A stretch of 20,856 nucleotides of DNA from Promethearchaeota archaeon Loki_b32 (GCA_005223125.1 NJBH01000051.1:1-20856); one strand, 5' to 3'. Counted from the first letter of the stretch, positions 2,863-20,855 are shown. Numbers and translations are program-made. Notes: generated by a model not told the origin, from the sequence alone.

Positions 2863-2940
2863 ATGAGAAAAATGCGAGAAGCAATAATTATAATTAAAAA
2901 TGGTATTGTGAACTATAATCTAACTTATCTTAATCAATAA
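2863..2940 (+). CDS. micropeptide, 25 aa MRKMREAIIIIKNGIVNYNLTYLNQ
   Basis: RBS GAGGT at 2851-2855, ATG 2863, TAA 2938-2940, then a T-tract. Same position and similar composition as 12851..12940. Confidence 0.65.
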   Translation: MRKMREAIIIIKNGIVNYNLTYLNQ

Positions 2941-3022
2941 ATATTTTTTTTATTTTTATGAAAGACAAGCTACTGAGTAATTTACGATAATCAATCATTA
3001 TTATATCATCTCGAAAATAAAT

Positions 3023-3093
3023 CTTTTCCATTTCCGTATTAGAACGTAATGTGAGAAAATGGGGCGAGATTTTTACTCGCCCTAATTACATTA
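3023..3093 (+). other. conserved intergenic element copy 1 (CTTTTCCATTTCC + GGGCGAG-ATTTTTA-CTCGCCC hairpin)
   Basis: Stem 3062-3068/3076-3082; related copies at 7544-7595 and 12963-13013. Confidence 0.75.
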
Positions 3094-3121
3094 AAAATAA
3101 TAATTTAAATGGTGAAAATGT

Positions 3122-3301
3122 ATGGGTTTAGAAAAAATAAATTTTGTAGGTAGGTGCCATTGTCCAGAATGCAATGGTTTGTATATTATAATAGACAATG
3201 AAATTATTTCTTGTCCTGTATGTGAATTAAATTCACATGGAAATGTCTCAAAAATGTACGAAGAGGAAGCAGGAAAAGAAGTAGTTCAATATCAAGTTTA
3301 A
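3122..3301 (+). CDS. zinc-ribbon microprotein (59 aa; CPEC...CPVC)
   Basis: RBS GGTGA at 3111-3115. Translation MGLEKINFVGRCHCPECNGLYIIIDNEIISCPVCELNSHGNVSKMYEEEAGKEVVQYQV; below the ORF-track cut-off. Confidence 0.75.
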   Translation: MGLEKINFVGRCHCPECNGLYIIIDNEIISCPVCELNSHGNVSKMYEEEAGKEVVQYQV

Positions 3302-3348
3302 AGTTCAATGAAAGTTCATTTAGTTAATCTATATATAAAACAAGTTAT
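3283..3348 (+). promoter_or_regulatory. promoter B: AGTTCA box array + TATA (ATCTATATAT 3327-3336)
   Basis: AGTTCA 3283, AGTTTA 3295, AGTTCA 3302, AGTTCA 3313; 8 nt gap to TATA. Confidence 0.7.
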
Positions 3349-3392
3349 TTAAAATTAATAAAAAAAAGAATCTGTAAAATAGGTAATTAAAA

Positions 3393-4703
3393 ATGGAACA
3401 AACTCCAACGAAAAGGAATTTCAGGCATTATATGTATTTCTTATTTGGACAACAATTTTCAATGCTGGGATCAATGATAGTGGGTTTTGTAATTACATTC
3501 TGGCTCACTATAGAAACCGGTAGCACTGTGATCCTTTCAATTTCGGTGTTTTTGATGTTTCTACCGCAAATTATTATAACGCCATTCTCTGGTGTTATCG
3601 CTGACAGGTGGAATAAGAAGGCTATTATTGCCTTTACAGATTCGATGCAAGCAGGGGTAACCTTTTTACTATTTGTATTTTTTCTTTTTGACTTTCAAAA
3701 CATTTGGTTAATATTAGGTGTAAACACATTTAGGGCATCATTATATGCATTTCAATATCCTACAGTACAATCTCTCATTCCAACAATGGTTCCGAAGGAA
3801 AAATTAAGTAGGATAAATGGTATAAATTTCTTATTTTCAGGAGTAATTTTTAGTATAGGTCCATTGCTCGCAGCAACACTTTTAGCATTTTTTACAATTA
3901 ACCAAATTTTCTTTGTTGACATTATAACTTTTTTAATTGCTCTCGTCCCATTTCTGTTAATAAAAATACCTAAAGTACATCGAGTTACAGAAGAAGCTGC
4001 TAAGAAGTCAATGTTTAAGGATTTCAAAACAGGGTTATTAACAATCAAGATGATTCCAGGCTTGTTTGCTATGATTGCATTTGCGATGATATGGAATTTC
4101 ATTAGTAGACCCTGGGCAGTGTTGCTACCATACTTTATATTAATTACACATGAGGGAACGGCTTTCTCTTTAGCATTGTTAATGACTTCATCTCAAGCTG
4201 GAAATATTCTTGGATCACTTATTTGTTCAGTTAAGAAAAATTGGAAACACAAAATAAAACTGAACATAATTGGCTCATCAATATTTTTCATATGTCAAAT
4301 ACCTGCGATTCTTGCACCTAAAGGGAATTTCATTCTCATGATGATAGTTCTTTTTCCCGCATGGGTACTATTTCCAATTACAGTTTCCACATATTTAACT
4401 ATTTTGCAAACAGTTGTTTCTAAAGATAAAATTGGCAGAATTATGTCAATTGATCACATGATTTCAATGGCGATAGCTCCAATTGGAGCGCTTATTGCGG
4501 GACCATTAGCAGAAACCATTGGTATAATCAATTTGTTTTTTATTTTTGCGATTGTGGGTATGATATTTCCTTATATCATTTGGTTTTTCACAAAAATCAG
4601 ACAGCTTGAAATCATCGAAAGAGAAATTATCATGAAAACAGAGGAAGTTGTTGAATTAGAAGAAACTCCAGAAATTATTCAAGTTATTGAACCAATTGAA
4701 TAA
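3393..4703 (+). CDS. MFS transporter (DHA3/MefA-like exporter type)
   Basis: About 12 hydrophobic segments; GQQFSMLGS N-terminus; MFS motif A GVIADRWNKK; PTMVPKEKLSRING; GRIMS..H....AIAPIGALIAGPL. Confidence 0.92.
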   Translation: MEQTPTKRNFRHYMYFLFGQQFSMLGSMIVGFVITFWLTIETGSTVILSISVFLMFLPQIIITPFSGVIADRWNKKAIIAFTDSMQAGVTFLLFVFFLFDFQNIWLILGVNTFRASLYAFQYPTVQSLIPTMVPKEKLSRINGINFLFSGVIFSIGPLLAATLLAFFTINQIFFVDIITFLIALVPFLLIKIPKVHRVTEEAAKKSMFKDFKTGLLTIKMIPGLFAMIAFAMIWNFISRPWAVLLPYFILITHEGTAFSLALLMTSSQAGNILGSLICSVKKNWKHKIKLNIIGSSIFFICQIPAILAPKGNFILMMIVLFPAWVLFPITVSTYLTILQTVVSKDKIGRIMSIDHMISMAIAPIGALIAGPLAETIGIINLFFIFAIVGMIFPYIIWFFTKIRQLEIIEREIIMKTEEVVELEETPEIIQVIEPIE

Positions 4704-4801
4704 ATTTTTTTTTCTCTTTTATTTATAATCTCTTTTTAAAAAAATTTTCCAATTCGCCATAGAGCATTTATTTAAATAGATGATACTTCATTCCTTAAAT
4801 A

Positions 4802-5890
4802 ATGGAAGAATTTACTATTAATGAGTATCTTAGCTTAAGACTTGAAGACGAAACGACAAATATCTATGTAAACAACAAAAAAATCTTGCGATGTAAATAC
4901 ATTCTAATCGATATTCCTATTGAAACCTTAGACAATGATGAATTTGAATCTATTGATGAATATATTGATGAGTATAAAAAAGTTGAAGCAGAAACAAAAG
5001 AGAAAGCAAAAAAGCTTCCACCTGATGTGGAGTTCTGGGGTCATTGCTCCAACCTTCACTATTGGCACTTACAGCAATATGATACAAATATTATTCATCA
5101 CGAATTAGCGTTTCCCTTACTAAAAGCTCTTACCAAAGCAGGAGACCTAATAGCTAAAGCAAGGTTTAAAGATGAGATCGCGAAATGATTTGGAAGCGGA
5201 TATCCCTCAGTCATGAAATTCTTAGAAAAAGAAGGATACTTAGAGTACCTAAATGAAGGAGAGCTTATATTATGTGTAAAAGACGCACTCGAGAAGAGTT
5301 TAAGAAAATTGGATCATAAGGCTGTAGATTGGTTAATAATGTATTACGGAAATAAACTTAAAACACATTTCGGAAGGGAGGAATACCTAAATATTCTTTT
5401 AAACAAAAACGAGGCAGAAATCATCATCGAATTAGGAAAAATTATTGGTAAAGATATCATAATTGAAGAATATAGAATTGATAGACTACATATTTCAGGT
5501 CTTTCAGAAGAGTATAGAGATACTAAAAGAAACCCATTTACAGAGTACTCAATCGAAGTAGAAGATAAATTTGTCGTAAGGCTTAATTTGTCAGATTGTG
5601 GTCTAAATTCTTTTCCTAAAATTATAACTGAATTAATAAAATTAGAAACTCTAATTTTAAATGGAAATGAATTAAAAGAAATATCAAAATCAATTTTAGA
5701 CATGAAATATTTAAGATTTGTATCCATAGCTCGTTGTGGAATTCAAAACATCCCAAATTGGTTTAAAAACTTAAAACTTTTAAAAGGAATATATCTTTTA
5801 GAAGGAATAAATCTATCAGGCAATCCGTTAAATGAAAGAAGTAAAGAATTAATAAAAAATTTTAAAAATATTGAATACTGGGTAAATTAA
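4802..5890 (+). pseudogene. Lokiarchaeia-type leucine-rich repeat protein interrupted by an in-frame TGA at 5186-5188
   Basis: ORFs 4802..5188 and 5213..5890 are in the same frame: KDEIAK*FGSGYPSVMKFL. N-terminal EFTINEYLSLRLE...EFWGHCSNL...LAFPLLKAL domain; C-terminal LRRs (LNLSDCGLNSFP, LETLILNGNELKEIS, INLSGNPL). Confidence 0.85.
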
Positions 5891-6153
5891 TCAATCCATC
5901 CCTTTTCCCTATACTTATTAACCAAATAAGGATTGTCCAGTAAATCGACATAGTTAGGCCTAATATACTTGTCTAAATCGGAGCTATATATGATCAAAGT
6001 ACCTCCACCCCAGATAAGGTCCCATTCCTCATTCATTAGGTCAATAAAATCCTCTGTACTCATTTCAATTTCCTCCCCGAGAATAGTTGGATGCACCGTG
6101 CTAACATAATAGTTATTAAATACGAAGTTACCGAAATCCCAGAAATTGTCCAA
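5887..6153 (-). pseudogene. probable gene fragment (88 aa, TTG start, no RBS)
   Basis: Protein-like sequence in a visibly more GC-rich patch. The frame is open up to a stop at 6201-6199 with no ATG upstream of 6153. Its stop overlaps the LRR stop (TTAA). Confidence 0.35.
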
Positions 6154-6278
6154 GTTGCTAGGACTGTAGAGTAAGTTTTTTTTAATTTTTTTTATTCTTT
6201 AATTTTTTTTAAGTAATTTATAATTAATTTGAAGCCTTTTTCACTAAATCTCATTCTATAGGTAATAAATATTCTATA

Positions 6279-6381
6279 ACTTCAATTTCAGTTTCCAGTT
6301 CACTTCAAGTTCAATTATCAAATCTATTTATGTAATAAAATCTAATCTTTGATCAGAAAAGAACTTGGCATGGAAAGTTCG
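6279..6381 (+). promoter_or_regulatory. promoter C: A(G/C)TTCA box array + TATA (ATCTATTTAT 6322-6331)
   Basis: ACTTCA 6279, AGTTTC 6290, AGTTCA 6297, AGTTCA 6308; 8 nt gap to TATA; downstream GAACT 6361 and AGTTCG 6376. Confidence 0.7.
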
Positions 6382-6423
6382 AACAATAAATATTAAACGA
6401 AATCACTAAAATAGGTATATTAA

Positions 6424-7383
6424 ATGACAGAAAGACCAGAAACAGAAAAGGCTTTAATAGATAGTTTGAACTTAAAAGCTTCTGAGATAGCGGATTCGAA
6501 ATTTAAACTAATAGATAGAGTTATTCTAGATTTTGCACCAGAAATAGCATATATATACCAGATTCGGGAGGATAAATCAGAAGAACAACAGATAAAAACA
6601 GGACGTCTTCATGAAAATCGCATTTTAGGAATTTTTTTAAAATTTTATTTAGAAGGCAAAAAAAAAATTACCACAGGAGACGTTGAGGAGGAATATAGGC
6701 TATATTTTAGAGAGATTGCACGATCAACTACATCAACTTATTTAAACATGCTTAAAAATGAATCTATTTTATCCACAGAAAAAGATGGGAGAAAAGCTTA
6801 TTATTTTTTACATGAAGATCCCCCACTAGGGATCAAACCTTTTTGGTTTACACGAATTTTTTGTATAGTTCCTGTTTATTTTAATAGAGCGATGACTTTT
6901 TCTCATTTATACATTAATCCTGAAAAAGCCATACAGGATTACGTTAATCAATACGGAGGTAAAGATAAAAAAATTTTAGTAAAAAATTTCAAATTTATTA
7001 TAGGGCTAATATTATTAAATATTTTTAAAAATCGAAGTTCGAAGTGTATACTTTGTCAATTTAGTAAAAGGGAAATATATGAGAAATTGGAAGAAATAAT
7101 TAGTATTGCAATTAAAGATAGAACTGATGTTTTACCCGAGGATCTGGTGAATAATGTAATAAACAAGTATTCAGAAATACCAACGCTCAATGAAACTGAT
7201 AACGATATTATGGAAGAAATCACTACTCACATGTCAAGATATGCTGATATTTACAAAAGAGATATTGAATTTCAGGTTATGTTATCAGTTCGACGGCAAG
7301 ATTTACGGTTAAAACAAAAAAGGGCTTTAGAGGGAGATATGTTATCAGTTTTAATTGAGGAAAAAATCGAGAGAGGTGTATGA
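6424..7383 (+). CDS. winged-helix transcriptional regulator with uncharacterised C-terminal domain
   Basis: RILGIFLKFYLEGKKKITTGDVEEEY...IARSTTSTYLNMLKNESILSTEKDGRKAYYFL is a wHTH with wing; a CILC motif occurs later. Confidence 0.75.
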   Translation: MTERPETEKALIDSLNLKASEIADSKFKLIDRVILDFAPEIAYIYQIREDKSEEQQIKTGRLHENRILGIFLKFYLEGKKKITTGDVEEEYRLYFREIARSTTSTYLNMLKNESILSTEKDGRKAYYFLHEDPPLGIKPFWFTRIFCIVPVYFNRAMTFSHLYINPEKAIQDYVNQYGGKDKKILVKNFKFIIGLILLNIFKNRSSKCILCQFSKREIYEKLEEIISIAIKDRTDVLPEDLVNNVINKYSEIPTLNETDNDIMEEITTHMSRYADIYKRDIEFQVMLSVRRQDLRLKQKRALEGDMLSVLIEEKIERGV

Positions 7384-7526
7384 AAATTAATAAGATTAAA
7401 TTAAATTGTATGATATGTGGGAAGGAAATCAAATTAAATTTTAATTCTATTACGGCGATATGTAAGAAATGTCAGAAAACCCGTGAGAAAACCCTTATTT
7501 ATGAACCATTTTTCCTATCAGAATAA
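7380..7526 (+). CDS. zinc-ribbon microprotein (48 aa; CMICG...CKKC)
   Basis: RBS GAGGTG and ATGA overlap with the stop of 6424..7383. Translation MKINKIKLNCMICGKEIKLNFNSITAICKKCQKTREKTLIYEPFFLSE. Confidence 0.8.
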   Translation: MKINKIKLNCMICGKEIKLNFNSITAICKKCQKTREKTLIYEPFFLSE

Positions 7527-7543
7527 TAATTTAATTTATTTTA

Positions 7544-7595
7544 CTTTTTCATTTCCAAATTATAAGAGAGAGATTTTTACTCGCCTTTAAGTTTT
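7544..7595 (+). other. conserved intergenic element copy 2 (degenerate 5' arm)
   Basis: CTTTTTCATTTCCAAATTATAAGAGAGAGATTTTTACTCGCCTTTAAGTTTT; shares GAGATTTTTACTCGCC exactly with copy 1. Confidence 0.7.
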
Positions 7596-7686
7596 ACAAA
7601 AAAACTATTAGTTATTTTGATTTTTCATGATTTTGAATTTCTCAAATTAGAGCAAACTCTACTTAGAAGAAAATATAATTTATGTT

Positions 7687-7777
7687 AAGTTGTGAAATTT
7701 TTTACACTATAATTATGTTTAAATACTCTATTAGATTTTATATTCTTAGAAAGTTGTGAAAAAAAAATACACAACTT
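7687..7777 (+). promoter_or_regulatory. two operator-like dyads flanking the thioredoxin TATA box
   Basis: Perfect AAGTTGTG-N11-CACAACTT at 7751-7777; imperfect AAGTTGTG-N10-CACTATAA at 7687-7712; TTTAAATA at 7718-7725 between them. Confidence 0.7.
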
Positions 7778-7806
7778 ATTTAAGAATTTTAAAATGTGAA
7801 AAACGA

Positions 7807-8211
7807 ATGCAAGAAGTAGATGAGAAATTAGAAATGTTGAGAAGTAAAAAAGCTGAAGCTTTATTAAAACATCAAAAAATGCCAGAGAGTGTTATAAAGG
7901 TAAACTCTGTAGAAGAATTTAACAAAATCTTAAAAGATTACCCTGATAAAATAATTATTATAGATTTTTGGGCAGTTTGGTGTGGCCCTTGCATGTTCTT
8001 CGCTCCAATTTTCAAAAAACTTCATGAAGAATTTCAAAACGACTTTATATTTCTTAAGGTTAATGTTGATGAAAACCCTTCCGTAGCAATGAAATACCAG
8101 ATAACCGGAATCCCAACAACGTTATTCATTAAAAATGGAGAAATTGTAAATAAGATTGTTGGAGCCATGAATTATGATGGAATGAAAAAAGTATTAGTAA
8201 AGTTAAAGTAA
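7807..8211 (+). CDS. trxA: thioredoxin
   Basis: DFWAVWCGPC active site and ITGIPT cis-Pro loop. ATG 7807 (MQEVDEKLEMLRSKK, archaeal-type N-terminal helix) is preferred over GTG 7756, which lies inside the operator palindrome. Confidence 0.95.
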   Translation: MQEVDEKLEMLRSKKAEALLKHQKMPESVIKVNSVEEFNKILKDYPDKIIIIDFWAVWCGPCMFFAPIFKKLHEEFQNDFIFLKVNVDENPSVAMKYQITGIPTTLFIKNGEIVNKIVGAMNYDGMKKVLVKLK

Positions 8212-8274
8212 TAAACTCGTTAAACTAGTTCTTTTTTTATTTATATTCTTTTTATAATTTTAAGGTAATGATTA

Positions 8275-8739
8275 ATGGAAGTAATAGAAAAACAATTAAA
8301 AGAATTTGAATTAATAGATGGATTATTGGAGAAAAAAGAAATCTTTTCTAGTGAACGATTATTCAAATGTATTTTAGGTTTAAATAAAACAGAATCGAAG
8401 GTACTTGGATATATGTTAAAAAATAAAGATGTAAGAACATCTGAAATTGCAAATGCATTAAAGATGGATAGAAGCTCAATTCAAAGAGCTGTTCAAGGTT
8501 TATCTGAGTTAAAACTCATTGATCGTAAATCAATGTCGATGAAAGATTATACTGCTACAAAAGAACTAAAAGATGCCAAAAAACAAGGGTATCTCTATGT
8601 TTATAATGCAAAGAACATGGAATCCATAAAAATTCAATTAAAAAAACTGTTAGATAAATGGTACAATTCAATGTTAAAATACATTAAAAATCTTGAAAAT
8701 CTCTGCGAATGTTGTGGTTTCAAATTTGAACCATGTTAA
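8275..8739 (+). CDS. HTH transcriptional regulator (TrmB/COG3355-like) with Cys-rich C-terminus
   Basis: FKCILGLNKTESKVL...SEIANALKMDRSSIQRAVQGLSELKLIDR...GYLYVY; C-terminal CECCGFKFEPC. Confidence 0.85.
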   Translation: MEVIEKQLKEFELIDGLLEKKEIFSSERLFKCILGLNKTESKVLGYMLKNKDVRTSEIANALKMDRSSIQRAVQGLSELKLIDRKSMSMKDYTATKELKDAKKQGYLYVYNAKNMESIKIQLKKLLDKWYNSMLKYIKNLENLCECCGFKFEPC

Positions 8740-8775
8740 ACATTTTGATAGATATAAGAAAAAATTAGTCATAAG

Positions 8776-9447
8776 TTAGAACATATAAATTACGTTAAAA
8801 GGGAGATTTTCCAATATTTCTTTAAGATCTTCTTTAAATTCTTTCGAAACAGGTTCAAAACCATCTAAAGTATAATTACTGACAGAATAATGATCTGGCA
8901 TGACTTCTAATAAGAATTCTTTTAATTTTTCCACATTTTTAATGTTATCATTAATACCCTTCAAAAACATTGTATAGATCCCTAATTTACCATTAAAATT
9001 TTTGCTAAATTCTATAATTCCTTCTAATACATCCATTGAGTTTATGGATTCAGGACATTTATTAATTTTTGAAAACTGAAAGTTATTAACGCTATTGAGA
9101 TTGATGGCAACCAAGTCACATCCATAAAAAATATTTCGAACGTCTTCATCTTGAAAGATTCCACAATTTAAATAAATACCAATTTTTTGTTTTGGATATA
9201 CCGCCTTAATCATTTTTGTAATTAGTTTAAATTTTGAAGGGTTTATGGTGTTGGTTATTCCCTTAAACCAAATTAAACTTGGAATCCCTCGAACTTTAAT
9301 ACAATCTCTAATTTCATTAAAAATTTCTTCAGTAATGTTAATCAAGTCTGAATCTTCAGAACTAGAGCTGAAATCAACTGATAAAAGAGTTCCAAAATTA
9401 AAATTAAACTCAAACGCTTTTACGTATCTGTAATCCATTAAGATCAC
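8776..9447 (-). CDS. radical-SAM-like partial TIM barrel lacking CxxxCxxC (COG0731-like C-terminal part)
   Basis: IGIYLNCGIF, DLVAINLNSV...FSKINKC and GKLGIYTMFLKGINDN..NVEKLKEFL..VMPD resemble the radical SAM core. No three-Cys motif is present. Located 14 nt downstream of the TPR gene. Confidence 0.6.
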   Translation of the reverse strand: MILMDYRYVKAFEFNFNFGTLLSVDFSSSSEDSDLINITEEIFNEIRDCIKVRGIPSLIWFKGITNTINPSKFKLITKMIKAVYPKQKIGIYLNCGIFQDEDVRNIFYGCDLVAINLNSVNNFQFSKINKCPESINSMDVLEGIIEFSKNFNGKLGIYTMFLKGINDNIKNVEKLKEFLLEVMPDHYSVSNYTLDGFEPVSKEFKEDLKEILENLPFNVIYMF

Positions 9448-9461
9448 ATTCTGTATTTGGA

Positions 9462-12425
9462 TTATTCAATATCTTTCGATTCTCCTAGTAATGCCTTAAC
9501 TTCAGAAATCAATTTCTCTACTTTAGGTAGGTATTTAGATGTATGACTAGGATGCATCTTTTCAGTCAATTTTTTCCCTCGTTCATAATATTCAAGCGCT
9601 TTTTCAATCTTTTCAAGTTTTTTAAAACATTCTCCCATTTTTAAGCAAGTTTCAAAAGCAAACCATCCTGAAGGTTCGAGATTCAAAGCTTCTCTAAATT
9701 TTTCAAGAGCATTTTCGTACTCTTCAAAAATCATTAATATTTCACCGTATGTATCATAAGAATTTCCATATTTAGGATTAAGACTTATTAGATATTCAGC
9801 AGTTTCAATGGCTTCCTCTCTTCTTCTTAAATGCCCTAACATATATGCTTTATTGTTTATAATATTAGTATCTCGTGGAAATAATTTAAGTGCTTCATCA
9901 GTAGTTTTTAAACCTTCATCATATTGTTGTTGATGGACCTGAATATACGATTTTAGTAAGAGAAGATTTCTTTTTAAAGTGGGGTGGCTTTCTAACAATT
10001 CATGAATTAAATCCAAAGCTTCATCTTCTCTCTTGGAAGTTAATAGAAAGTAAGCTTTCCTAGCATATAGAGGATGTAGTGTTGGAACCAACTCAATTGC
10101 ACTATCAACAGAGTCAATAGATTCATCGTATTTTTTAAGCCCATTTAAAATGTGTGCTTGCAATAGAAGATACTTTATTTTATTATATTTAATAGGCTCA
10201 AAAGAGATTGTAAGCTTTATTAATTCAATAAATATATCAATATTTGGCTCTTTAAATGTAAATTTATAAATTAAATTATAACCAAGTACTAAAGCTTTAG
10301 TGAGAAATGAAATGGGATGATCAGGATAAAGTGTTAAAACGAGATTAGCAATTTCTAAAGATTTATCAAATTTACCACGTGCTAAATAGGAGTAAGTTAA
10401 AATGAAATACGCAATTGTATCAATTCTGGGATTCTTTTTAAAATTATTGATATCAATTCCTCCTGTAATTACTCTCTTCGCTTCTTTATATTTATTGATC
10501 AGACAATAGTATAAACTTTTCAAAAGCAGAATATCTTGATCAGTTGGATTCAATATGGTTAATTGATTTATTACCTCTAAAGGTTTATTATAATCCTTTA
10601 CTAGTGACATCCAATGAGAAATATATACTATGTATTTTGCTTTTAATAGTGCGGTATTATCAGGATATTGAGATAATAAATCCTCAATATCATCAAGTAC
10701 TTTATCTCCTTGATATACCCTAATTAAAATTTGAGCTTTTTGGCATGTTAAGAGAACATTTGGTGTTATCTCTAATGCCTCCTCTATAATTTCTAAAGAT
10801 TTCTCATAATTATCCATTGAAAAGTAAGTTATTGATTGGAATAAGTATCCTATGAAATCATTTGGATATTTTTGAATAATTTCATTAGTAATTTTAACTG
10901 ATTCAATTAAATCATTTTCTGCTGTCGCTATAATATCTTTTAAAATTAATTGATTAATGGTTTTTAACTTAGTATTACTATTCTGATATAGCTCCTTTGC
11001 TTTAGAAACTTTATTCCCATTTAAATTTTTTACAACTTTATTATAGATATCTAATTTATTCAAATTGTATGTCTTCTGAATTTCATTTGTATTCAAGAAA
11101 TTTAATTTGGATAGAAACATAATATCTAAAGCATTGAAGATATTGGGCTCCAAAGCATAATAATACTCATCCTCCTCTCCAGCTATTGGTAGGCTTGAAG
11201 GTTCAAAAGTTTGGAATTCTTCCTTAATATTCTGCCAAACAAAACCTTCTAATTTTGCTTCACTATCAACTAATTTTTTCTCAGTCTCAATTTTATATGC
11301 TAAATATCTAATGTACCCAGGTAAGAATGTTTTTAATGAAGGTTTCAGATGTTCATTGAATAGGTTACCACAAATATCATCTAAGATTTTATCTAATAGC
11401 AATTCTACATCTATCGTCGTAGTTTCATGAAATTTATTTAAATATGTTAATTTTATAATATGTTTTTCTACAATCGCCTTAAGAACTTTCTCAACTGTCT
11501 CATTCTTTTGAAAATAATAAGTTCCCCCTTGCTCATCCTTCATAATAAAGAATTTAATGTCAAAAAATTCATTGTCTACTATCTCTCTTATATAATAATC
11601 TAATGTAGTTCTATCAATCTTGTACTTCAACGAGAAGTCTTTGGTTGAAATAAACTCAGGATATTGAGCAGGATGATTAATCGAAAGGAACAATAAAATT
11701 TTATTAAAGTCCTCCTCATCTTTTAGCATCGCTTCCACTTTAGAATAAGACAACTTCAAGATATGATCAAGATATTGATATTTTAATTCATCATCCTCTA
11801 TTTTATATTTCTTAAAGAATCTACTAGTTTTTTCTGTAATTTCTTCAATTCTCTTGCTTTCCTGTTCCAAAATAGACTGACGATCCAAATCATAGGATTT
11901 CAATATTCTAAGATATTCTGTCTTTCCTAACGGTGTTATTATATATTCTTTATTATCTCTTGAAATAAATCCCCCATCTATTAATGAATTTAAATTATTT
12001 GATAAAGAGGATTGATTAATTAACAGCGGTTCTTGTTTAAAGTCTGACCATTTACATGAATAATTATTATAGAGCATCCATAAAATCCAATGATCATAAT
12101 TCCTAAATTTGAGAATTGTTTTTGGTGGAAATTTCAATCTCCTCTGCCCGGATTTTCTATCATAGACTAACTCACTATACCGATCTCGCCCTTGTGGAGT
12201 AATTCGATATTTCCCCTTTTCAGGCTTCTCAATATAATCTTTATTCAAAAGTTTTTTTAAATTGCCTGATAAAGTTGATTCACTTATTTCAGCAGTAAAA
12301 GCGGACCACTCACAAATATTATTGTTGCTGAGCATCCATAATATTACATATTCAAAATCAGTTTTCCCCATAATGGGGTTTAATATCTCTCCAGGAGGAT
12401 ATAAGACTCCCTCTGATCTACTCAT
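9462..12425 (-). CDS. tandem winged-helix + TPR-repeat protein (987 aa)
   Basis: Two N-terminal wHTH repeats (ILWML.NN..C.WS.F....I..S.LS.NL..L.....I......Y.ITP.G...Y) and a possible third HTH (FSLKYKIDRTTLDYYIREI). The C-terminal half is TPRs, e.g. NSYDTYGEILMIFEEYENALEKFREALNLEP. Confidence 0.88.
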   Translation of the reverse strand: MSRSEGVLYPPGEILNPIMGKTDFEYVILWMLSNNNICEWSAFTAEISESTLSGNLKKLLNKDYIEKPEKGKYRITPQGRDRYSELVYDRKSGQRRLKFPPKTILKFRNYDHWILWMLYNNYSCKWSDFKQEPLLINQSSLSNNLNSLIDGGFISRDNKEYIITPLGKTEYLRILKSYDLDRQSILEQESKRIEEITEKTSRFFKKYKIEDDELKYQYLDHILKLSYSKVEAMLKDEEDFNKILLFLSINHPAQYPEFISTKDFSLKYKIDRTTLDYYIREIVDNEFFDIKFFIMKDEQGGTYYFQKNETVEKVLKAIVEKHIIKLTYLNKFHETTTIDVELLLDKILDDICGNLFNEHLKPSLKTFLPGYIRYLAYKIETEKKLVDSEAKLEGFVWQNIKEEFQTFEPSSLPIAGEEDEYYYALEPNIFNALDIMFLSKLNFLNTNEIQKTYNLNKLDIYNKVVKNLNGNKVSKAKELYQNSNTKLKTINQLILKDIIATAENDLIESVKITNEIIQKYPNDFIGYLFQSITYFSMDNYEKSLEIIEEALEITPNVLLTCQKAQILIRVYQGDKVLDDIEDLLSQYPDNTALLKAKYIVYISHWMSLVKDYNKPLEVINQLTILNPTDQDILLLKSLYYCLINKYKEAKRVITGGIDINNFKKNPRIDTIAYFILTYSYLARGKFDKSLEIANLVLTLYPDHPISFLTKALVLGYNLIYKFTFKEPNIDIFIELIKLTISFEPIKYNKIKYLLLQAHILNGLKKYDESIDSVDSAIELVPTLHPLYARKAYFLLTSKREDEALDLIHELLESHPTLKRNLLLLKSYIQVHQQQYDEGLKTTDEALKLFPRDTNIINNKAYMLGHLRRREEAIETAEYLISLNPKYGNSYDTYGEILMIFEEYENALEKFREALNLEPSGWFAFETCLKMGECFKKLEKIEKALEYYERGKKLTEKMHPSHTSKYLPKVEKLISEVKALLGESKDIE

Positions 12426-12471
12426 AATGAATCACGGTTTCTTCTATAAGATCTTATTTTATATTTATATT

Positions 12472-12559
12472 AGTTCACTATCCTTTTAAGCTTTTCACTT
12501 CGGAGTAAAGTATGAACTTCACATGAAGTGCGAAGTGCGAATCTATATAATGGAGTTCG
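12472..12559 (+). promoter_or_regulatory. promoter D (divergent region): box array + TATA (ATCTATATAA 12541-12550)
   Basis: AGTTCA 12472, ACTTCG 12497, ACTTCA 12516, AGTGCG 12527; 8 nt gap to TATA; AGTTCG 12554. Confidence 0.65.
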
Positions 12560-12612
12560 ATCTATCTTTTCTTAAGAAAAAATAAAAAAAAATAGAAAAG
12601 TGATAAAAGAAT

Positions 12613-12822
12613 ATGGAACAAGTTTTTGAAAAAGAACCCTTTTATATTGTACTTCCTGAAATTGAGGAAAAAGCAGAAAAAGTTGAGGAGAAACCAAAAG
12701 AGATCAAAAAGAAACTTAAATTTAGGAAACACGCCAAGCAGCATCAAGAGAGAATCGATATTAATAAAATAAGGAATAAAATGAATGCAAGCCGATACAG
12801 AGCAACTCTCTACAATCGATAA
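12613..12822 (+). CDS. small hypothetical protein (69 aa), paralog of 2550..2819
   Basis: Acidic N-half, basic C-half; shared motifs PEIEEKAEKVE, KKKLKF, HAKQHQERI and RYR. Confidence 0.8.
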   Translation: MEQVFEKEPFYIVLPEIEEKAEKVEEKPKEIKKKLKFRKHAKQHQERIDINKIRNKMNASRYRATLYNR

Positions 12823-12850
12823 TTAAAATTTAAGTTGGAGGTTGTTAAAA

Positions 12851-12940
12851 ATGCGTGTTAAACGAATGAAGAAAAAGATGAGGTTAATAATAATTACGAA
12901 TGATAAGGGAAGATATCATTCGCGATATATAACTTATTAA
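12851..12940 (+). CDS. micropeptide, 29 aa MRVKRMKKKMRLIIITNDKGRYHSRYITY
   Basis: Strong RBS GGAGGT at 12837-12842, ATG 12851, TAA 12938-12940, then a T-tract. Counterpart of 2863..2940. Confidence 0.7.
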   Translation: MRVKRMKKKMRLIIITNDKGRYHSRYITY

Positions 12941-12962
12941 AATTTTTTTTTACGATTATTTT

Positions 12963-13013
12963 CTTTTCCATTCCTAAATTAAGGGGTGAGATTTTTTCTC
13001 ACCCTCTAATTTA
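12963..13013 (+). other. conserved intergenic element copy 3 (CTTTTCCATTCC + GGGTGAG-ATTTTTT-CTCACCC hairpin)
   Basis: Stem 12984-12990/12998-13004, extended by TAAATTA (12975-12981)/TAATTTA (13007-13013). C-G to T-A compensatory change relative to copy 1. Confidence 0.75.
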
Positions 13014-13529: not shown

Positions 13530-13690
13530 ATTTTCACCTTTATTCCATTAATTTCTTGAATTAAATTATTTACAAAGAATATAAATTTTCTAGGGTGAGA
13601 ATTTAATATTTCAGAATATATTTAAGGATAAAGAGTCTGAAATTTTTTTTGAAAATTATAAATTTATACTACTGATCATTTAAGTTAACT

Positions 13691-14755
13691 ATGAATTACT
13701 ACACAAAGGAGGCTTTAATATCTGCAACTGGAAATACTACAAAGCTAAATCAATTGAAAAGGGATGATTCGACTGCTATCATTTCAGAATATGGTGGACG
13801 GGTTTTAGGAGTTTTCCCAACAGAGAAGTGTTATAGCTTATTATGGATAAATCCAAACATTAAAAATATAATATCAACTAGAAACAGGGCGATTGGAGGA
13901 GATAGGTATTGGTTAAGCCCAGAAAGAGACTTTTTCTATAAAAATCCCGAAAGTTTCTCAAATTGGATTTGCCAACCTTCACTTGATCCTGCTAATTATG
14001 AGATCCTTGATACTGATGAGATTTCCTGTACAATTTCAAGCAATTTATTTGTTCAGAATATGAGAACAAAACAAGGATACCAAGGAGAAATTACACGACA
14101 GTTTAAATTAATAAGGGAACCATATAATACAGGATTATCTTATTGTGGAGTAGAGTTTTTAGATGATTGTATTCTTTATAGACCTAATCTAAATGTAAAT
14201 GGATGGAGTTTGGCCACAATTATTAGTTGTGGTCGAGAAAATCCTGGAACAGTATTAATACCTACTAAAGTTAAACCTAAACCACTGTCCTACTTTAAAA
14301 TCATACCAAAAGATCGTCTAAAGGTTGAAGAAAACTATGTGGCATTTAAGATTGATGTAGATGATATATATAAGTTAGCAATTCGACCTGAGGATATAGA
14401 TTTTTCAAGACCATCCAAAATAGGTTATGTCCTAAAAATGTCGGATAGTGACGAATATGGATTTTTAGTCAAACTTTCTGATGATATTCCAAAAACTCAG
14501 AATGAATGCTTTGATATTGCTAGAGATCATCCCGATTCTGAAATAGGAGTTATTCAATCATATAATTCAGAATCACCAGAAAAGCCCTTTTTGAACTACG
14601 GAGAGATTGAGCTTCAACTAAACAAATTTGAAACAATAGATAATGCATCTCATGGGAAGGCGAAGCATCAACTTTTTGGATATATTGGGGCAAAAGACGA
14701 TATAATTGGTGCTATTGAAAAATATTTAGGAATCGAAAATCCCTTTTTATTTTAA
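13691..14755 (+). CDS. hypothetical protein, DUF6786-like / galactose-mutarotase-like beta-sandwich
   Basis: YGGRVLG..., LLWIN, GGDRYWLSPE, IQSYN and YGEIELQ motifs, recognised from memory only. Confidence 0.55.
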   Translation: MNYYTKEALISATGNTTKLNQLKRDDSTAIISEYGGRVLGVFPTEKCYSLLWINPNIKNIISTRNRAIGGDRYWLSPERDFFYKNPESFSNWICQPSLDPANYEILDTDEISCTISSNLFVQNMRTKQGYQGEITRQFKLIREPYNTGLSYCGVEFLDDCILYRPNLNVNGWSLATIISCGRENPGTVLIPTKVKPKPLSYFKIIPKDRLKVEENYVAFKIDVDDIYKLAIRPEDIDFSRPSKIGYVLKMSDSDEYGFLVKLSDDIPKTQNECFDIARDHPDSEIGVIQSYNSESPEKPFLNYGEIELQLNKFETIDNASHGKAKHQLFGYIGAKDDIIGAIEKYLGIENPFLF

Positions 14756-18337: not shown

Positions 18338-20005
18338 TTATAATTGTTCCTCCTTATTATTTGATATTTTTTCAATTTTTTCAACTTGATCATCTTGAGT
18401 ACTCTCAAGTACTAAAATATTCTTACTTTTATTAAAATTATGCTTGATAATATCCTCTCTTTTATTAACTAATATTGATTTTTTTATTTTTCCTTTTTTA
18501 ACTCCTTTCTTTAATTTTCTTATTTTTCTTACCAATGGAGGATATTTAAAATGAATTTGATAAAAACTAAAAACGGTAATAATACCAATAATTCCTGCAG
18601 TTAAGGTATAAACAAGCCAACTCCAATCAGGACCTTTTTCTATTGGTTCATCTGGTTCGATAATAATATAAGATATGTCGAGAGAGACATCATCAATTGC
18701 AATAGTTATGTTTTGATCCAATACAAAATCATCCGCAAGATACACTTGAAGTGATAAATTAACATCATCTGTAATTAAATTTGAAACATCAAAACCACCA
18801 ACTTTAGCTTCCTGAAGGGATGTGGTGGCAGTACTTAATTTGATAGGTTCTGTGTGTTTATTATTATTAATTAGAACCCTTATTTCGGAATTAGGAGATA
18901 ATGAAGTATTCCATAATTGTTCAATTTTATAATTAAAATTAAGAGTGGCATTTTGAACTATAACGGGATATTCACTTAGATCGCTGATTTTATCACAATT
19001 TTGTTTCCAGGAGATAGAAGTAAATCGGTTAATATTTTTCTCATACTGGAATGTAAGATTACAGGATTTAATGAGTAGTGAATAATATGTATCTCTATCT
19101 GCTTCACCATAATTATCTTCAACATCAATATCAATCCCTAGAAAAATTGTGAAATTATAATTATCAAAATCTAACACCTTGCTCAAATAGAATTTCAATA
19201 CTTCTTTTGGTACAGGAGTCATATAAGTGTTTCCAATAGAATTTTCCACACCATCACTCGGAGAATTATCACCGGCAGGAAGATCTCCAAATCCCAAATT
19301 ACGAGGAATATAACGAGCTACTTCATTTCTATCTTCTTGTTCTATATCTGAAAGAAGGACATAGAAAGTTACATGATCATATTCTGCTGCGGTTGGATTA
19401 GTTCCAGTTAAATTATCAAGAGGAGTTTCTACATTTGTATTTGCAGTTCCATTGAATAATGCTGATATCTGTGCTGAAGTAATAGAGTAATCACTCATAT
19501 CATGCGGCATTGTGATAATTCTTCTCCATAATACACTTGGTCGATTACGAGTTTGATTGCCCATTACACCATATATATTTGGAGTTGAAGATTCCCAATA
19601 TTCATGCGATGCGTTACAGCCATATTGATTAATTTCAAATAAGTCAGGGTAAATGGAATCACCAGGTTTCTTTGTTGGAGTCCAATCTGAAGCACTTGGA
19701 GTGCCTGAAATGTTCGAAAAAGTCCAATATTCTCCAATGATTTTAAAATTTGCTTGATTCCCACTGATCTTTCCATCAACATCTGTAACATCTCCTTCAG
19801 ATTCCATAAACCAAAAATCTTGAGACCCGAAACCTGAATTATTTACCCATTGTATCTCTCCGGGAATTTCCGCAGCTAAGTGAAGAGTATTTTGTTTCAA
19901 GTTATTAATAAACAATGTTGTAGTATTTATTGAAATATTTATAAAAATGAGAGTAAAGATGAATGTAAAAATTAATAAGGAATATTTTAATTTTTGTTTA
20001 TTCAT
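18338..20005 (-). CDS. single-pass cell-surface protein (signal peptide, beta-rich N-glycosylatable ectodomain, TM helix, basic tail)
   Basis: N-terminal MNKQKLKYSLLIFTFIFTLIFI; many N-x-S/T sequons; TM WSWLVYTLTAGIIGIITVFSFY followed by HFKYPPLVRKIRKLKK. Confidence 0.85.
   Translation of the reverse strand: MNKQKLKYSLLIFTFIFTLIFINISINTTTLFINNLKQNTLHLAAEIPGEIQWVNNSGFGSQDFWFMESEGDVTDVDGKISGNQANFKIIGEYWTFSNISGTPSASDWTPTKKPGDSIYPDLFEINQYGCNASHEYWESSTPNIYGVMGNQTRNRPSVLWRRIITMPHDMSDYSITSAQISALFNGTANTNVETPLDNLTGTNPTAAEYDHVTFYVLLSDIEQEDRNEVARYIPRNLGFGDLPAGDNSPSDGVENSIGNTYMTPVPKEVLKFYLSKVLDFDNYNFTIFLGIDIDVEDNYGEADRDTYYSLLIKSCNLTFQYEKNINRFTSISWKQNCDKISDLSEYPVIVQNATLNFNYKIEQLWNTSLSPNSEIRVLINNNKHTEPIKLSTATTSLQEAKVGGFDVSNLITDDVNLSLQVYLADDFVLDQNITIAIDDVSLDISYIIIEPDEPIEKGPDWSWLVYTLTAGIIGIITVFSFYQIHFKYPPLVRKIRKLKKGVKKGKIKKSILVNKREDIIKHNFNKSKNILVLESTQDDQVEKIEKISNNKEEQL
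18641..19077. repeat. direct repeat copy 1 (partner 20355-20791, offset 1714)
   Basis: Includes a 106-bp identical block (18921-19026 = 20635-20740) and a 97-bp block with one mismatch (18720-18816). Confidence 0.9.
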
Positions 20006-20855
20006 TATTATCCTCCTTATTTTGTGATTCTACATTACTTCCAATATTATCTTCCTTAAGATTTGCTTTCATTGTTTTAGTTTTACTATATGCTTCTGAA
20101 TCTTTTAATTGAGGCTGTCCATAATCAATAATTTCTAATTCATTTTGGATATTAGATTTAATGAGCTCTTCTCTATTATTTAATAAAATTGGTTTAACTT
20201 TTCTTCCCTTTCTTATTTTCTTTTTCAAATTTCTTATTTTTCTAACCATTGGTGGGTACTTGAAATGTAATTGATATGAGCCAAAAACAACAATAATACC
20301 ACCAATAGCAGCAATTAAAGTGTAAACTAACCAGCTCATATCTGTTCCTGGTGTTATTGGTTCATCTGGTTCGATAATAACATAAGAAATATCAAGAGAG
20401 ACATCATCAATTGAAACAGATATGTTTTGATCTAATACAAAATCATCCGCAAGATACACTTGAAGTGATAAATTAACGTCATCTGTAATTAAATTTGAAA
20501 CATCAAAACCACCAACTTTAGCTTCCTGAAAGGAAGTAGTAGCAGTACTTAATTTGACAGTTTCTGTATGTTTATTATCATTAATTAAAATCCTAATCTC
20601 AGAATTTGGAGATAATGAAGTATTCCATAATTGATCAATTTTATAATTAAAATTAAGAGTGGCATTTTGAACTATAACGGGATATTCACTTAGATCGCTG
20701 ATTTTATCACAATTTTGTTTCCAGGAGATAGAAGTAAATCTGTTTATCTTTTTCTCATAATCGAATGAAAGATTACAGGATTTAATGAGTAAATAATACC
20801 ATGTGTCAATCTCAGCATTAGCATAATTATCTTCATTATAAATATCGATACCTAG
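19998..20855 (-). CDS. paralogous single-pass cell-surface protein, 5' end outside the window
   Basis: The frame stays open to the window edge (LGIDIYNEDNYANAEIDTWYYLLIKSCNLSFD...) and aligns with 18338..20005, so the track start at 20459 is internal. Confidence 0.85.
   Translation of the reverse strand, partial: LGIDIYNEDNYANAEIDTWYYLLIKSCNLSFDYEKKINRFTSISWKQNCDKISDLSEYPVIVQNATLNFNYKIDQLWNTSLSPNSEIRILINDNKHTETVKLSTATTSFQEAKVGGFDVSNLITDDVNLSLQVYLADDFVLDQNISVSIDDVSLDISYVIIEPDEPITPGTDMSWLVYTLIAAIGGIIVVFGSYQLHFKYPPMVRKIRNLKKKIRKGRKVKPILLNNREELIKSNIQNELEIIDYGQPQLKDSEAYSKTKTMKANLKEDNIGSNVESQNKEDNNE
20355..20791. repeat. direct repeat copy 2 (partner 18641-19077)
   Basis: Direct alignment by eye of the two paralogous coding segments. 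Confidence 0.9.

Follow-up and report, generated by a model that had tools for sequence, protein, structure and literature searches.

A Conserved Box and Hairpin Behind Tiny Genes of Promethearchaeota archaeon Loki_b32 as a Probable Antisense RNA Module for a Peptide-Uptake mRNA

Introduction

In the contig of Promethearchaeota archaeon Loki_b32 that was analyzed here (NJBH01000051.1:1-20856; "the window" denotes this whole stretch of 20,856 nucleotides), a short box, CTTTTYCATT(T)CC, followed by a GC-rich hairpin occurs three times behind tiny genes, which raises the question of what such an element is and what it could act on. An earlier note on the sequence had considered a structured 3' tail, a small RNA, a U-rich loop bound by an Sm/Lsm-like protein, and a DNA dyad operator. 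To our knowledge, little is known about post-transcriptional control in Asgard archaea, and in a limited literature search we found no report of a regulatory RNA from this group, including the arrangement of seed and hairpin described below.

Three Copies of the Element in the Window

A pattern search located the three copies at 3023-3083, 7544-7586, and 12963-13004, as the earlier note had placed them. The hairpin pattern GGGYGAG-N7-CTCRCCC, which had been given for all of them, matches copies 1 (3062-3082) and 3 (12984-13004) with 0 mismatches, where none is expected from 100 shuffles, whereas copy 2 (7566-7586) has 3 mismatches. The box alone occurs at chance level (7 matches versus 4.9 expected), and the combination of box and hairpin is confined to this contig within the 4.13 Mb genome. 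The features of the three loci are as follows:

2863..2940, + strand: 25-aa micro-gene before copy 1, conserved across the genus
2944..2957, + strand: T8-A-T5 run upstream of copy 1, immediately behind the 25-aa micro-gene; a canonical terminator signal in archaea
3021..3045, + strand: putative antisense seed of copy 1 (long form), AUCUUUUCCAUUUCCGUAUUAGAAC, comprising the box (3023-3035) and 10 nt
3061..3083, + strand: hairpin of copy 1, stem 3062-3068 / 3076-3082, loop AUUUUUA
3122..3301, + strand: 59-aa four-Cys zinc-ribbon gene, Shine-Dalgarno sequence and start about 35 nt after the copy 1 hairpin
3393-4703: MFS gene, following the 59-aa zinc-ribbon gene
7380..7526, + strand: 48-aa zinc-ribbon gene before copy 2
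7537..7563, + strand: putative antisense seed of copy 2, box 7544-7556
7566..7586, + strand: decayed hairpin of copy 2, 5' arm GAGAGAG, 3' arm CTCGCCT
12851..12940, + strand: 29-aa micro-gene before copy 3, paralogue of 2863-2940
12943..12951, + strand: T9 run before the short-form box, with a constant spacing of about 11 nt
12958..12984, + strand: putative antisense seed of copy 3 (short form), box 12963-12974
12976..13012, + strand: extended hairpin of copy 3, core 12984-12990 / 12998-13004, stem lengthened by the flanks AAAUUAAG / CUCUAAUUU

Having lost its 5' arm, the copy 2 hairpin has a dG of -3.6 kcal/mol compared to -15 to -20 for copies 1 and 3 (copy 3, -20.4 on the + strand versus -19.3 on the - strand), and in copy 1 nucleotides 3055-3059 (AAAAU) may form a pseudoknot with the hairpin loop. 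Copy 2 had been thought to stand behind a non-homologous gene. In other genomes the short element is preceded by zinc-ribbon genes of 32-46 aa, and the 48-aa gene of copy 2 is a homologue of these; judging by this homology, copy 2 and its gene are a translocated duplicate and not of independent origin. Two supposed further traces were treated as chance, as the orthologous site of the "remnant" at 4745-4758 lacks it in three other genomes and the half-site at 13592-13600 has no partner arm on reading the sequence. Pfam searches with the tiny proteins returned generic zinc-ribbon noise only. The tiny gene and the box are separated in most genomes by a T8-10 run, which in archaea is a strong signal for termination; thus, the box would be transcribed only by read-through or from its own promoter, and no such promoter was identified. 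The window also encodes several wHTH regulators, and the micro-gene operons adjoin wHTH-TPR regulators.

The Element Is Conserved Within One Genus

By a covariance-model search of Asgard genomes, the element was found in 21 of the 54 genomes of the genus and in 0 of 99 other genomes of the order. Most element-bearing genomes have a single long and a single short form on the same contig, at a distance of 7-15 kb and in conserved synteny. In an alignment of 32 homologues (21 genomes, syntenic sites), conservation of the box columns is 90% or higher. With 2-3 copies per genome at orthologous positions the element is not mobile, which argues against a MITE or IS end. With the Rfam 15 covariance models the element had no match, although E values up to 10 were admitted. 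A pattern search of the genome collection outside the genus returned only the same MAGs and chance matches in GC-rich bacteria, and a metagenome scan yielded one contig, which resembles G003.

The Hairpin Folds as a Sense-Strand RNA

The C-G/T-A exchange between copies 1 and 3, which had been noticed earlier, proved to be real, as among 32 homologues 97% of the cells are paired and both sides have changed at 4 of the 7 pairs, a degree of covariation that was matched by 0 of 500 shuffles. G.U pairs had been proposed as a sign of an RNA rather than of a DNA dyad. In the 32 homologues there are 10 G.U cells, all of them (10/10) with the G on the 5' arm and hence on the + strand only, and unpaired cells number at most 5. 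In 26 of the 32 elements the + strand folds more stably than the - strand. For the short form the alifold energy is -13.0 on the + strand versus -5.4 on the - strand, and RNAalifold predicts 13 bp, at one of which G.U is the most frequent pair. Since the stem covaries and the G.U pairs fit the + strand only, the element folds as a sense-strand RNA. These data support the suggested RNA role, be it as a structured 3' tail or as a small RNA, and they speak against the DNA dyad operator, as the short-form arms change in sequence with the pairing kept, in addition to the strand preference of G.U pairs and folding energy.

The 7-nt U-rich loop is conserved within this genome only and varies across the genus, where ACUCUGA is the commonest loop of the long elements and others include CCUUUUA, GCUCCAA, and UUUCACU. 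There is no conservation of an oligo-U loop across the genus, and the suggestion of an Sm/Lsm-like protein bound to it therefore does not hold. Perfect GC-rich 7-bp hairpins are very rare in this AT-rich genome (18 in total), and the 4 intergenic ones comprise 2 of the elements described here and 2 tRNA-arm-like sequences, which speaks against a generic terminator. A riboswitch was rejected, as loop and spacer are the least conserved parts of the homologue alignment, so that there is no conserved unpaired ligand pocket, and Rfam gave no match.

The Box Is Antisense to the Start of a Peptide-Uptake Gene

Antisense complementarity connects the box and the following approximately 10 nt with the translation start of a solute-binding gene of the Opp/Dpp type, which lies on another contig (Pfam SBP_bac_5, 4.9e-44) and has genes for an Opp-type permease and an oligo_HPY ATPase downstream of it. 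Copy 1 pairs over 23 contiguous bp, from about -7 to +15 of the SBP_bac_5 mRNA (G000:C11:41924), with a dG of -30.1 and a z of -8.1 against 500 shuffles. Copies 2 and 3 each form a duplex of 24 bp with 2 mismatches with this start region (dG -20.6 and -21.2, respectively), that of copy 3 spanning about -6 to +18. Each of the 32 elements that were tested (21 genomes) pairs over 17-36 bp with the start region of its own genome (mean dG -26), whereby the start codon is always covered and in some lineages the Shine-Dalgarno sequence as well. In diverged long forms half of the box is missing and the match has shifted onto the Shine-Dalgarno sequence and the AUG. No local hairpin is supported over the seed; in the short forms the extended stem also takes up the last approximately 8 nt of the match.

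The target motif is present in 44 of the 54 genomes of the genus, namely in 25 of 25 element-bearing ones and in 19 without a hairpin element. The target start region hardly varies at the DNA level, even where the paralogues compared share 35% protein identity, which points to selection on the nucleotide sequence. Departures from the perfect complement are A>G in 20 of 218 cases versus T>C in 8 of 507, and this excess fits a + strand RNA because only A>G keeps a wobble pair. Compensatory change is scarce because the target start is so invariant: elements pair only slightly better with their own translation initiation region than with foreign ones (12/18, p = 0.08), and single cases of a compensatory type are G013 versus G028 at the Shine-Dalgarno flank and GAAAT in G065. 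The complement of the 13-nt box also occurs by chance in purine-rich coding sequence, and in a genome scan by duplex energy alone the SBP start was not the unique best match, a ranking which does not discriminate because long interrupted duplexes in coding DNA score equally.

The same box is found outside the element. In at least 14 genomes of the genus a hairpin-less antisense box of 24-26 nt follows the TFB stop codon and precedes a T7-9 run, and some of these genomes have no hairpin element. Every independent box context is oriented so as to give an antisense transcript. In G014, G015, G016, and G020 the TFB-type box is kept and the target motif was not found.

Several other functions of the box were considered and rejected. 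A minus-strand micro-ORF starting at the box (GGAAATGGAAAAG read as MEK...) has no conserved frame, and G068 and G009 have lost its ATG. Pairing of the box with the start of the 59-aa gene is MFE-predicted in many sequences, but the box is unchanged where this start has no AUGG and is also present in short forms without such a gene. The likeness of the box to the unit 2 promoter, which would make it an initiator or promoter-proximal element of the regulon promoters, is not conserved in orthologues. The T-run is a poor TBP site, and its spacing as a TATA box would be inconsistent between the forms. Motifs of C/D-box, H/ACA, tRNA-like, BHB, K-turn, origin-recognition-box, or triplex type were absent on inspection, with Rfam and ARAGORN negative.

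Proposed Function and Alternative Explanations

Taken together with the complementarity, the element is probably a base-pairing RNA module, in which a seed and a protective hairpin mask the start codon of a peptide-uptake mRNA. Thus, an RNA role as suggested in the earlier note stands, whereas the box, which is the most conserved part, is better explained by the antisense match than by any reading proposed there. The element would be the functional end of a regulatory RNA that is transcribed in the direction of the preceding tiny genes. Its seed, that is, the box and the approximately 10 nt after it, is single-stranded and has a complement of 20-30 nt in the SBP_bac_5 translation initiation region, and the GC-rich hairpin most likely serves to delimit the seed RNA on its 3' side or to shield it there from 3'-to-5' decay. 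By masking the start codon, the pairing would lead to less peptide-binding protein or trigger decay of the SBP mRNA. In the short form the seed would be the tail of a micro-gene/zinc-ribbon operon, in the long form it would lie at the junction of the micro-gene and the zinc-ribbon/MFS genes, possibly folded into a small pseudoknot, and the hairpin-less seed would be part of the TFB mRNA 3' UTR. Whereas conservation, sense-strand fold, and complementarity in every genome tested are seen in the sequences, production of a stable RNA and repression of its target are inferred.

The constant position behind tiny genes and a T-run might also mean that the U-rich box and the hairpin do no more than terminate or attenuate transcription or stabilize the upstream tiny-gene mRNA against 3' decay, with the complementarity to the transporter being functionless. 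No GTTCA-box promoter intervenes between the micro-gene and the zinc-ribbon/MFS genes that flank the long form, hairpins behind peptide genes are known from bacterial operons, and there is an analogy with prgQ-IRS1 (PMC8265641). The GC-rich 7-9-bp stem, the short loop, and the U-rich sequence UUUAAUUU that follows the hairpin in the short form resemble a Rho-independent terminator. However, the T-run already precedes the element, UUUAAUUU is base-paired into the extended stem, a run of U4 or longer occurs within 15 nt after the hairpin in only 8 of the 24 long forms, and archaeal terminators are U-tracts that need no hairpin (PMC8716108). We regard this explanation as unlikely, since it accounts neither for the near-invariance of a 13-25 nt sequence that is no U-tract, CCAUUUCCAUAUUGAA, nor for a match of 20-30 nt to the start codon region of one gene family in every genome, nor for the same sequence in the TFB 3' UTR. 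Quite unlikely, too, is that the long form, with its hairpin or pseudoknot about 20 nt before the Shine-Dalgarno sequence, is a 5' cis-leader of the 59-aa zinc-ribbon/MFS genes that is bound by a protein, for instance the zinc-ribbon protein, and of which the short form is a derived copy; such a role could coexist with an antisense role. The spacing to the Shine-Dalgarno sequence and the ATG is constant in 20 genomes, and a 4-bp loop-to-upstream helix of H-type geometry is 81% paired versus 73% in shuffles and 30-56% in slid controls and shows a GAGU/ACUC to GAGC/GCUC exchange. On the other hand, the short form has no conserved downstream gene, element and zinc-ribbon gene are separated in G025, and loop and spacer show little of the conservation that a pocket for a ligand or a protein would have. 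The TATA-like box upstream of the box (TTATATCATC / TTTTATCAACTC), which would suit a leader, stands at a variable distance of 8 to 38 nt from it, and a second small hairpin or TCCAnnnTGGA palindrome after the box was rejected (mean z -0.08, below -1 in only 3 of 24).

The shared sequence could also be read as DNA, namely as a 25-bp protein-binding site that lies at the transporter gene start and, inverted, at the element loci, with the hairpin as a separate entity. The direct repeat that forms its core, GGAAATGGAAAAG, could be recognized by a tandem winged-helix protein, wHTH regulators are encoded in the window, and the target start is conserved at the DNA level also in the genomes without a hairpin element. 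Yet the sites lie in 3' regions directly before terminators, they have the antisense orientation in all independent contexts, the different sub-windows of the match that are kept by different lineages always include the start codon, the preference for A>G over T>C depends on the strand, in keeping with wobble pairing, and the regulon's own promoter boxes (GTTCA repeats) differ, which makes such a site very unlikely in our view. It would be highly improbable for the boxes to be decaying, non-functional inverted fragments of solute-binding gene 5' ends, even though this gene family is large (up to 11 paralogues in one genome), rearrangements occur, with the target operon split by an IS element in this genome, and copy 2 is visibly decaying: 32 elements from 21 genomes keep the box at syntenic sites, homology stops by about +26 of the coding sequence, and the association with a covarying hairpin or a T-run is constant.

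Comparison With Known Systems and Possible Significance

The bacterial small RNAs GcvB and DapZ act as repressors of opp/dpp and further mRNAs for ABC-transporter binding proteins, whereby DapZ is made at the 3' end of the dapB mRNA (PMC4474525, PMC9438474). Like them, the proposed antisense module would combine a single-stranded seed for the translation start of peptide/amino-acid transporter binding-protein mRNAs with a subsequent stable 3' hairpin at the 3' end of a protein-coding transcription unit, and a conserved site could serve several paralogous targets. It differs in having no sequence or Rfam relationship to either, in its archaeal host, and in a seed that is present in several host transcripts, including the TFB 3' UTR, with no chaperone known; its near-perfect match of 20-30 nt is much longer than typical bacterial seeds. 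In Methanosarcina mazei, an unstructured region of sRNA162 pairs with a trans-encoded mRNA and masks the ribosome binding site (PMC3510493), a mode of pairing that is also predicted here for an archaeal RNA, although sRNA162 is a free-standing sRNA gene of a methanogen with another target and has neither a conserved GC hairpin module nor a micro-gene operon. The inverted-repeat RNA structures prgQ-IRS1/IRS2 of pCF10 mark transcript ends and may stabilize short transcripts and limit downstream genes (PMC8265641). They share with the present loci a tiny peptide gene beside a peptide-sensing regulator, followed by an inverted-repeat RNA, and, as proposed here, RNA-RNA pairing in control, but are bacterial, countertranscript-controlled terminators without an antisense match to a peptide-uptake gene.

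The element offers a concrete pair to test, with a defined seed, a target at the start of an oligopeptide-binding gene, and a structure. It ties an unexplained micro-gene/regulator/exporter locus to peptide uptake and bears on whether this locus is a peptide-signaling system, and in a setting of plain U-tract terminators it would be uncommon for a strong GC hairpin to serve as a dedicated RNA cap. It also suggests that in those archaea that are most closely related to eukaryotes regulatory seeds reside in mRNA tails, among them the tail of the mRNA for a basal transcription factor. It is conceivable, albeit doubtful, that micro-gene operons and the TFB mRNA carry interchangeable antisense tails that tune oligopeptide import at the RNA level. 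If so, an Asgard feedback loop would link tiny-peptide production and peptide uptake by mRNA-mRNA pairing, a logic that resembles the Opp-dependent peptide signaling of Gram-positive bacteria, and in reverse an abundant transporter mRNA could titrate or destabilize the TFB and micro-gene transcripts. Apart from these tails, one copy of the box lies on C49 in no clear gene context and may be due to chance.

Copies and Distribution of the Element

The window comprises the entire contig C19 (20,856 bp) of the 4.13-Mb Loki_b32 assembly (genome G000, 30% GC), and the three copies of a box, CTTTTYCATT(T)CC, with a GC-rich hairpin, GGGYGAG-N7-CTCRCCC, that the earlier note had reported there are all present as described. 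A pattern search of the window found the hairpin without mismatches at 3062-3082 (copy 1) and 12984-13004 (copy 3) and with three mismatches at 7566-7586 (copy 2); shuffled sequences are expected to give none. The count of the box by itself in the window is not above chance. Copies 1 and 3 fold at a predicted -15.4 and -20.4 kcal/mol, respectively. In copy 2 the 5' arm is gone, and little of the fold remains (-3.6 kcal/mol). No further box-plus-hairpin copies occur elsewhere in the assembly.

A pattern search of relatives yielded homologues within the same genus, which take two forms. In the long form (copy 1, 3023-3083), the box is followed by a spacer of ~25 nt, the hairpin, ~30 A-rich nt, a Shine-Dalgarno (SD) site and then a 59-aa zinc-ribbon gene. 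In the short form (copy 3, 12963-13004), 8 nt separate box and hairpin, and the stem is lengthened by the hairpin flanks. The covariance-model search proposed in the earlier note was carried out with a model built from ten sequences; 21 of the 54 genus genomes gave a hit, and the 99 genomes searched in 23 further genera of the order gave none. Most positive genomes carry a single copy of each form, and wherever the two were assembled together, 7-15 kb of the same contig separate them. In G013, G004, G028, and G075, the zinc-ribbon gene is preceded by a more diverged long form, and G071 has an additional long copy. On contig C10 of G071, two short elements 350 nt apart (L030:1148-1210 and 1501-1563) share the contig with a long one, and in G007 (C185, L022) a second box, CTTTTCCATTACC, without a hairpin, follows the short element at a distance of ~25 nt; these cases show that local duplication of the module occurs. 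A long element of G025 (C61:7323-7404, L035:1501-1582) stands as an orphan: its 9-bp stem is intact, no micro-gene is recognisable upstream, and no zinc-ribbon gene follows; the zinc-ribbon gene of this genome lies 10 kb away and is itself without the element.

The order of the genes around the element is conserved across the compared genomes:

Unit 1: promoter, 89-aa ORF, 25-aa micro-gene, T-run, long element, 59-aa zinc-ribbon gene, MFS gene
Unit 2 (divergent from a wHTH-TPR gene): promoter, 69-aa ORF, 29-aa micro-gene, two zinc-ribbon mini-genes, T-run, short element

In G000, the zinc-ribbon genes of unit 2 have been lost, and a zinc-ribbon gene with the decaying copy 2 (7544-7586) is placed behind the wHTH gene (6424-7383) instead. 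Since its sites are syntenic, the element is an orthologous feature under selection, not a mobile repeat or a known MITE or IS end, an origin that the earlier note had named as one that would refute its reading.

The 25-29-aa micro-genes (window 2863-2940 and 12851-12940; orthologues in L071-L073) are conserved genus-wide, with a basic start, an Ile run, N/S-G-T, and Y-N..Y as protein features. Conservation across the genus extends to the zinc-ribbon mini-genes (32-46 aa, CxxC...CxxC) and to the 59-aa zinc-ribbon gene with its four Cys, and no Pfam family was found for any of these genes. At window 6424-7526, the wHTH gene encodes 319 aa in G000 versus 203-284 aa in three relatives and overlaps (ATGA) a 48-aa zinc-ribbon gene, seemingly a part of unit 2 that was translocated. 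Elsewhere in the window, a 300-nt direct repeat of 76% identity (18437-18736 and 20151-20450) lies inside the adjacent minus-strand ORFs 18338-20005 and 19998-20855, which are tandem paralogues without a Pfam family.

The Hairpin Folds as RNA

In the alignment of 32 homologues, which was fitted to the covariance model and is somewhat biased toward the structure, 97.3% of the cells of the 7-bp stem are paired. Both-sided changes occur in four of the seven stem pairs, and the observed values were reached by none of 500 shuffles, which supports the claimed covariation of the stem. G.U pairs, suggested beforehand as a sign of RNA over a DNA dyad, fill ten cells, all with the G on the 5' arm, so that they would be mismatches if read from the other strand. 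The fold of the + strand is more stable than that of the - strand in 26 of the 32 elements, and for the short forms RNAalifold gave -13.0 on the + and -5.4 on the - strand, with 13 predicted pairs and G.U as the commonest pair at one position. Taken together, the G.U orientation, the strand energies, and the RNAalifold result indicate a hairpin that folds in RNA of the same sense as the adjacent genes. The U-rich loop, which had been described as conserved, is not so across the homologues, and a role as a protein site is thereby ruled out.

In the long forms, four nucleotides located 2 nt upstream of the stem are complementary to the first four loop nucleotides, which is classical H-type pseudoknot geometry. 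The pairing of this helix reaches 81% of cells; shuffles give 73% and slid controls 30-56%. A GAGU/ACUC to GAGC/GCUC exchange is found in the same register. An H-type pseudoknot is predicted as a possible feature of the long forms. For an additional small hairpin just after the box, there was no support.

Complementarity to the Start of an Oligopeptide-Binding Protein Gene

Among the gene starts of G000, the sole perfect complement of the box is at C11:41924, at the translation start of a 607-aa Opp/Dpp-type solute-binding protein (Pfam SBP_bac_5, 4.9e-44). Downstream of this gene, past an IS insertion, lie genes for two Opp-type permeases and for an ATPase carrying an oligopeptide/dipeptide C-terminal domain. 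The intervening region (C11:43890-45920; L240:7894-9921, minus strand) holds an ORF for a DDE transposase together with a fragment of Mu-transposase-C, so that the Opp-type operon is split by an insertion element in G000. Copy 1 is predicted to form a duplex of 23 contiguous bp with the target, from about -7 to +15 (dG -30.1, z -8.1 versus shuffles), and copies 3 and 2 duplexes of 24 bp with two mismatches each (dG -21.2 and -20.6, respectively). This complementarity explains why the conserved sequence exceeds the 13-nt box (CCAUAUUGAAU in long forms).

The start region of the target family, AGTGAAYTYAAT-ATGGAAATGGAAAAGAAAAATTTAGC, is near-invariant in DNA even among paralogues with 35-55% protein identity, and the near-identical stretch (G000:C11:41880-41960 and paralogues) comprises the SD, the spacer, and the first nine codons (MEMEKKNLA). 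Such near-identity of DNA between paralogues of 35% protein identity argues for selection on the nucleotide sequence itself. The target motif is present in 44 of 54 genomes of the genus, with no match for a reversed control pattern, and in all 25 element-bearing genomes. All 32 elements from 21 genomes can pair, by prediction, over 17-36 bp with the start region of their own genome (mean dG -26), whereby the start codon is covered in every case. In the diverged long forms the first half of the box is gone, and the match has moved upstream to -14 to +8, where it covers the SD and the AUG. Departures from the perfect complement comprise A>G at 20 of 218 positions and T>C at 8 of 507, counts which are not phylogenetically independent; since A>G alone of these two changes retains a wobble pair, the excess fits an RNA of the + strand. 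Single compensatory cases are seen between G013 and G028 beside the SD, and in G065. Pairing was better with the own than with a foreign target in 12 of 18 comparisons (p = 0.08), a trend within the limits that the near-invariant target sets to such tests, covariation tests included.

A Box Without Hairpin Behind the TFB Gene

The same antisense sequence occurs without a hairpin behind a TFB gene (Pfam TFIIB and zinc ribbon), past its stop codon, and a T7-9 run follows it directly. In G000 this is:

C4:~14566-14606 (L194:767-807), minus strand: TFB-tail box, 14 nt past the stop codon, T9 run directly after

Its predicted duplex with the target spans 23 bp (dG -25.4). At least 14 genomes of the genus, several of them without the hairpin element, keep the box behind their TFB orthologue, and it is partly present or variant in others. 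G018 has a target variant with a single ATGGAA, which its TFB box matches. G019 and G022 share this target variant; the box of G019 fits less well, and a search for one in G022 found none. In four genomes the TFB-type box is kept and the target is not detectable. The TFB-tail box is an independent occurrence of the proposed seed (box plus ~10 nt) at the end of a 3' UTR, oriented to yield antisense RNA, and this suggests a basal transcription factor mRNA with a regulatory 3' UTR seed. In most genomes, a conserved G-rich block, TTAAGGGTTGAGGGGGCGCAATCTCTTAAT, lies ~10-35 nt past the T-run of the TFB tail (L226-L239) and could mark where an RNA gene, of either strand, ends.

Possible Mode of Action

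We consider it fairly probable that the element is a base-pairing RNA module, in which a seed and a protective hairpin serve to mask the start codon of the target. The seed would reside on the sense transcripts of TFB and the micro-gene units and pair with the start of the oligopeptide-binding-protein mRNA, the duplex would block ribosome access or induce mRNA decay, and the hairpin would protect or define the RNA end beside the seed. Many polymerases should be halted at the T-run upstream of the box, and no promoter for the element could be placed. The proposed mode of action is like that of bacterial GcvB and DapZ (PMC4474525, PMC9438474) and of sRNA162, an archaeal RNA by which a ribosome binding site is masked (PMC3510493). 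An Rfam search with the element gave no match, so that it is not a member of these families. No report of the element or of an Asgard base-pairing regulatory RNA was found in literature searches not aimed specifically at Asgard regulatory RNAs.

Other explanations are given lower weight. A cis-acting leader of the zinc-ribbon/MFS genes would suit the position of the long form, and it may coexist with an antisense role; behind the short form no gene is conserved. A shared DNA-binding motif would fit the near-invariant DNA of the target start region and is set against the strand-specific A>G excess. Relics of gene fragments would fit the match to a coding start and are set against the synteny of the element. 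A purely structural 3' end or attenuator would suit an element next to a T-run; the predicted pairing reaches the target start codon in all 32 elements, and archaeal terminators in Term-seq work are U-tracts without a hairpin (PMC8716108). GC-rich hairpins are not a general device of the G000 genome: the 4.13 Mb contain 18 perfect ones (7 bp, at least 5 G/C, loop 3-9), of which four are intergenic, two being this element and two resembling tRNA arms. Mirror-repeat controls gave 62 matches compared to these 18, which suggests that stable hairpins are avoided in this genome.
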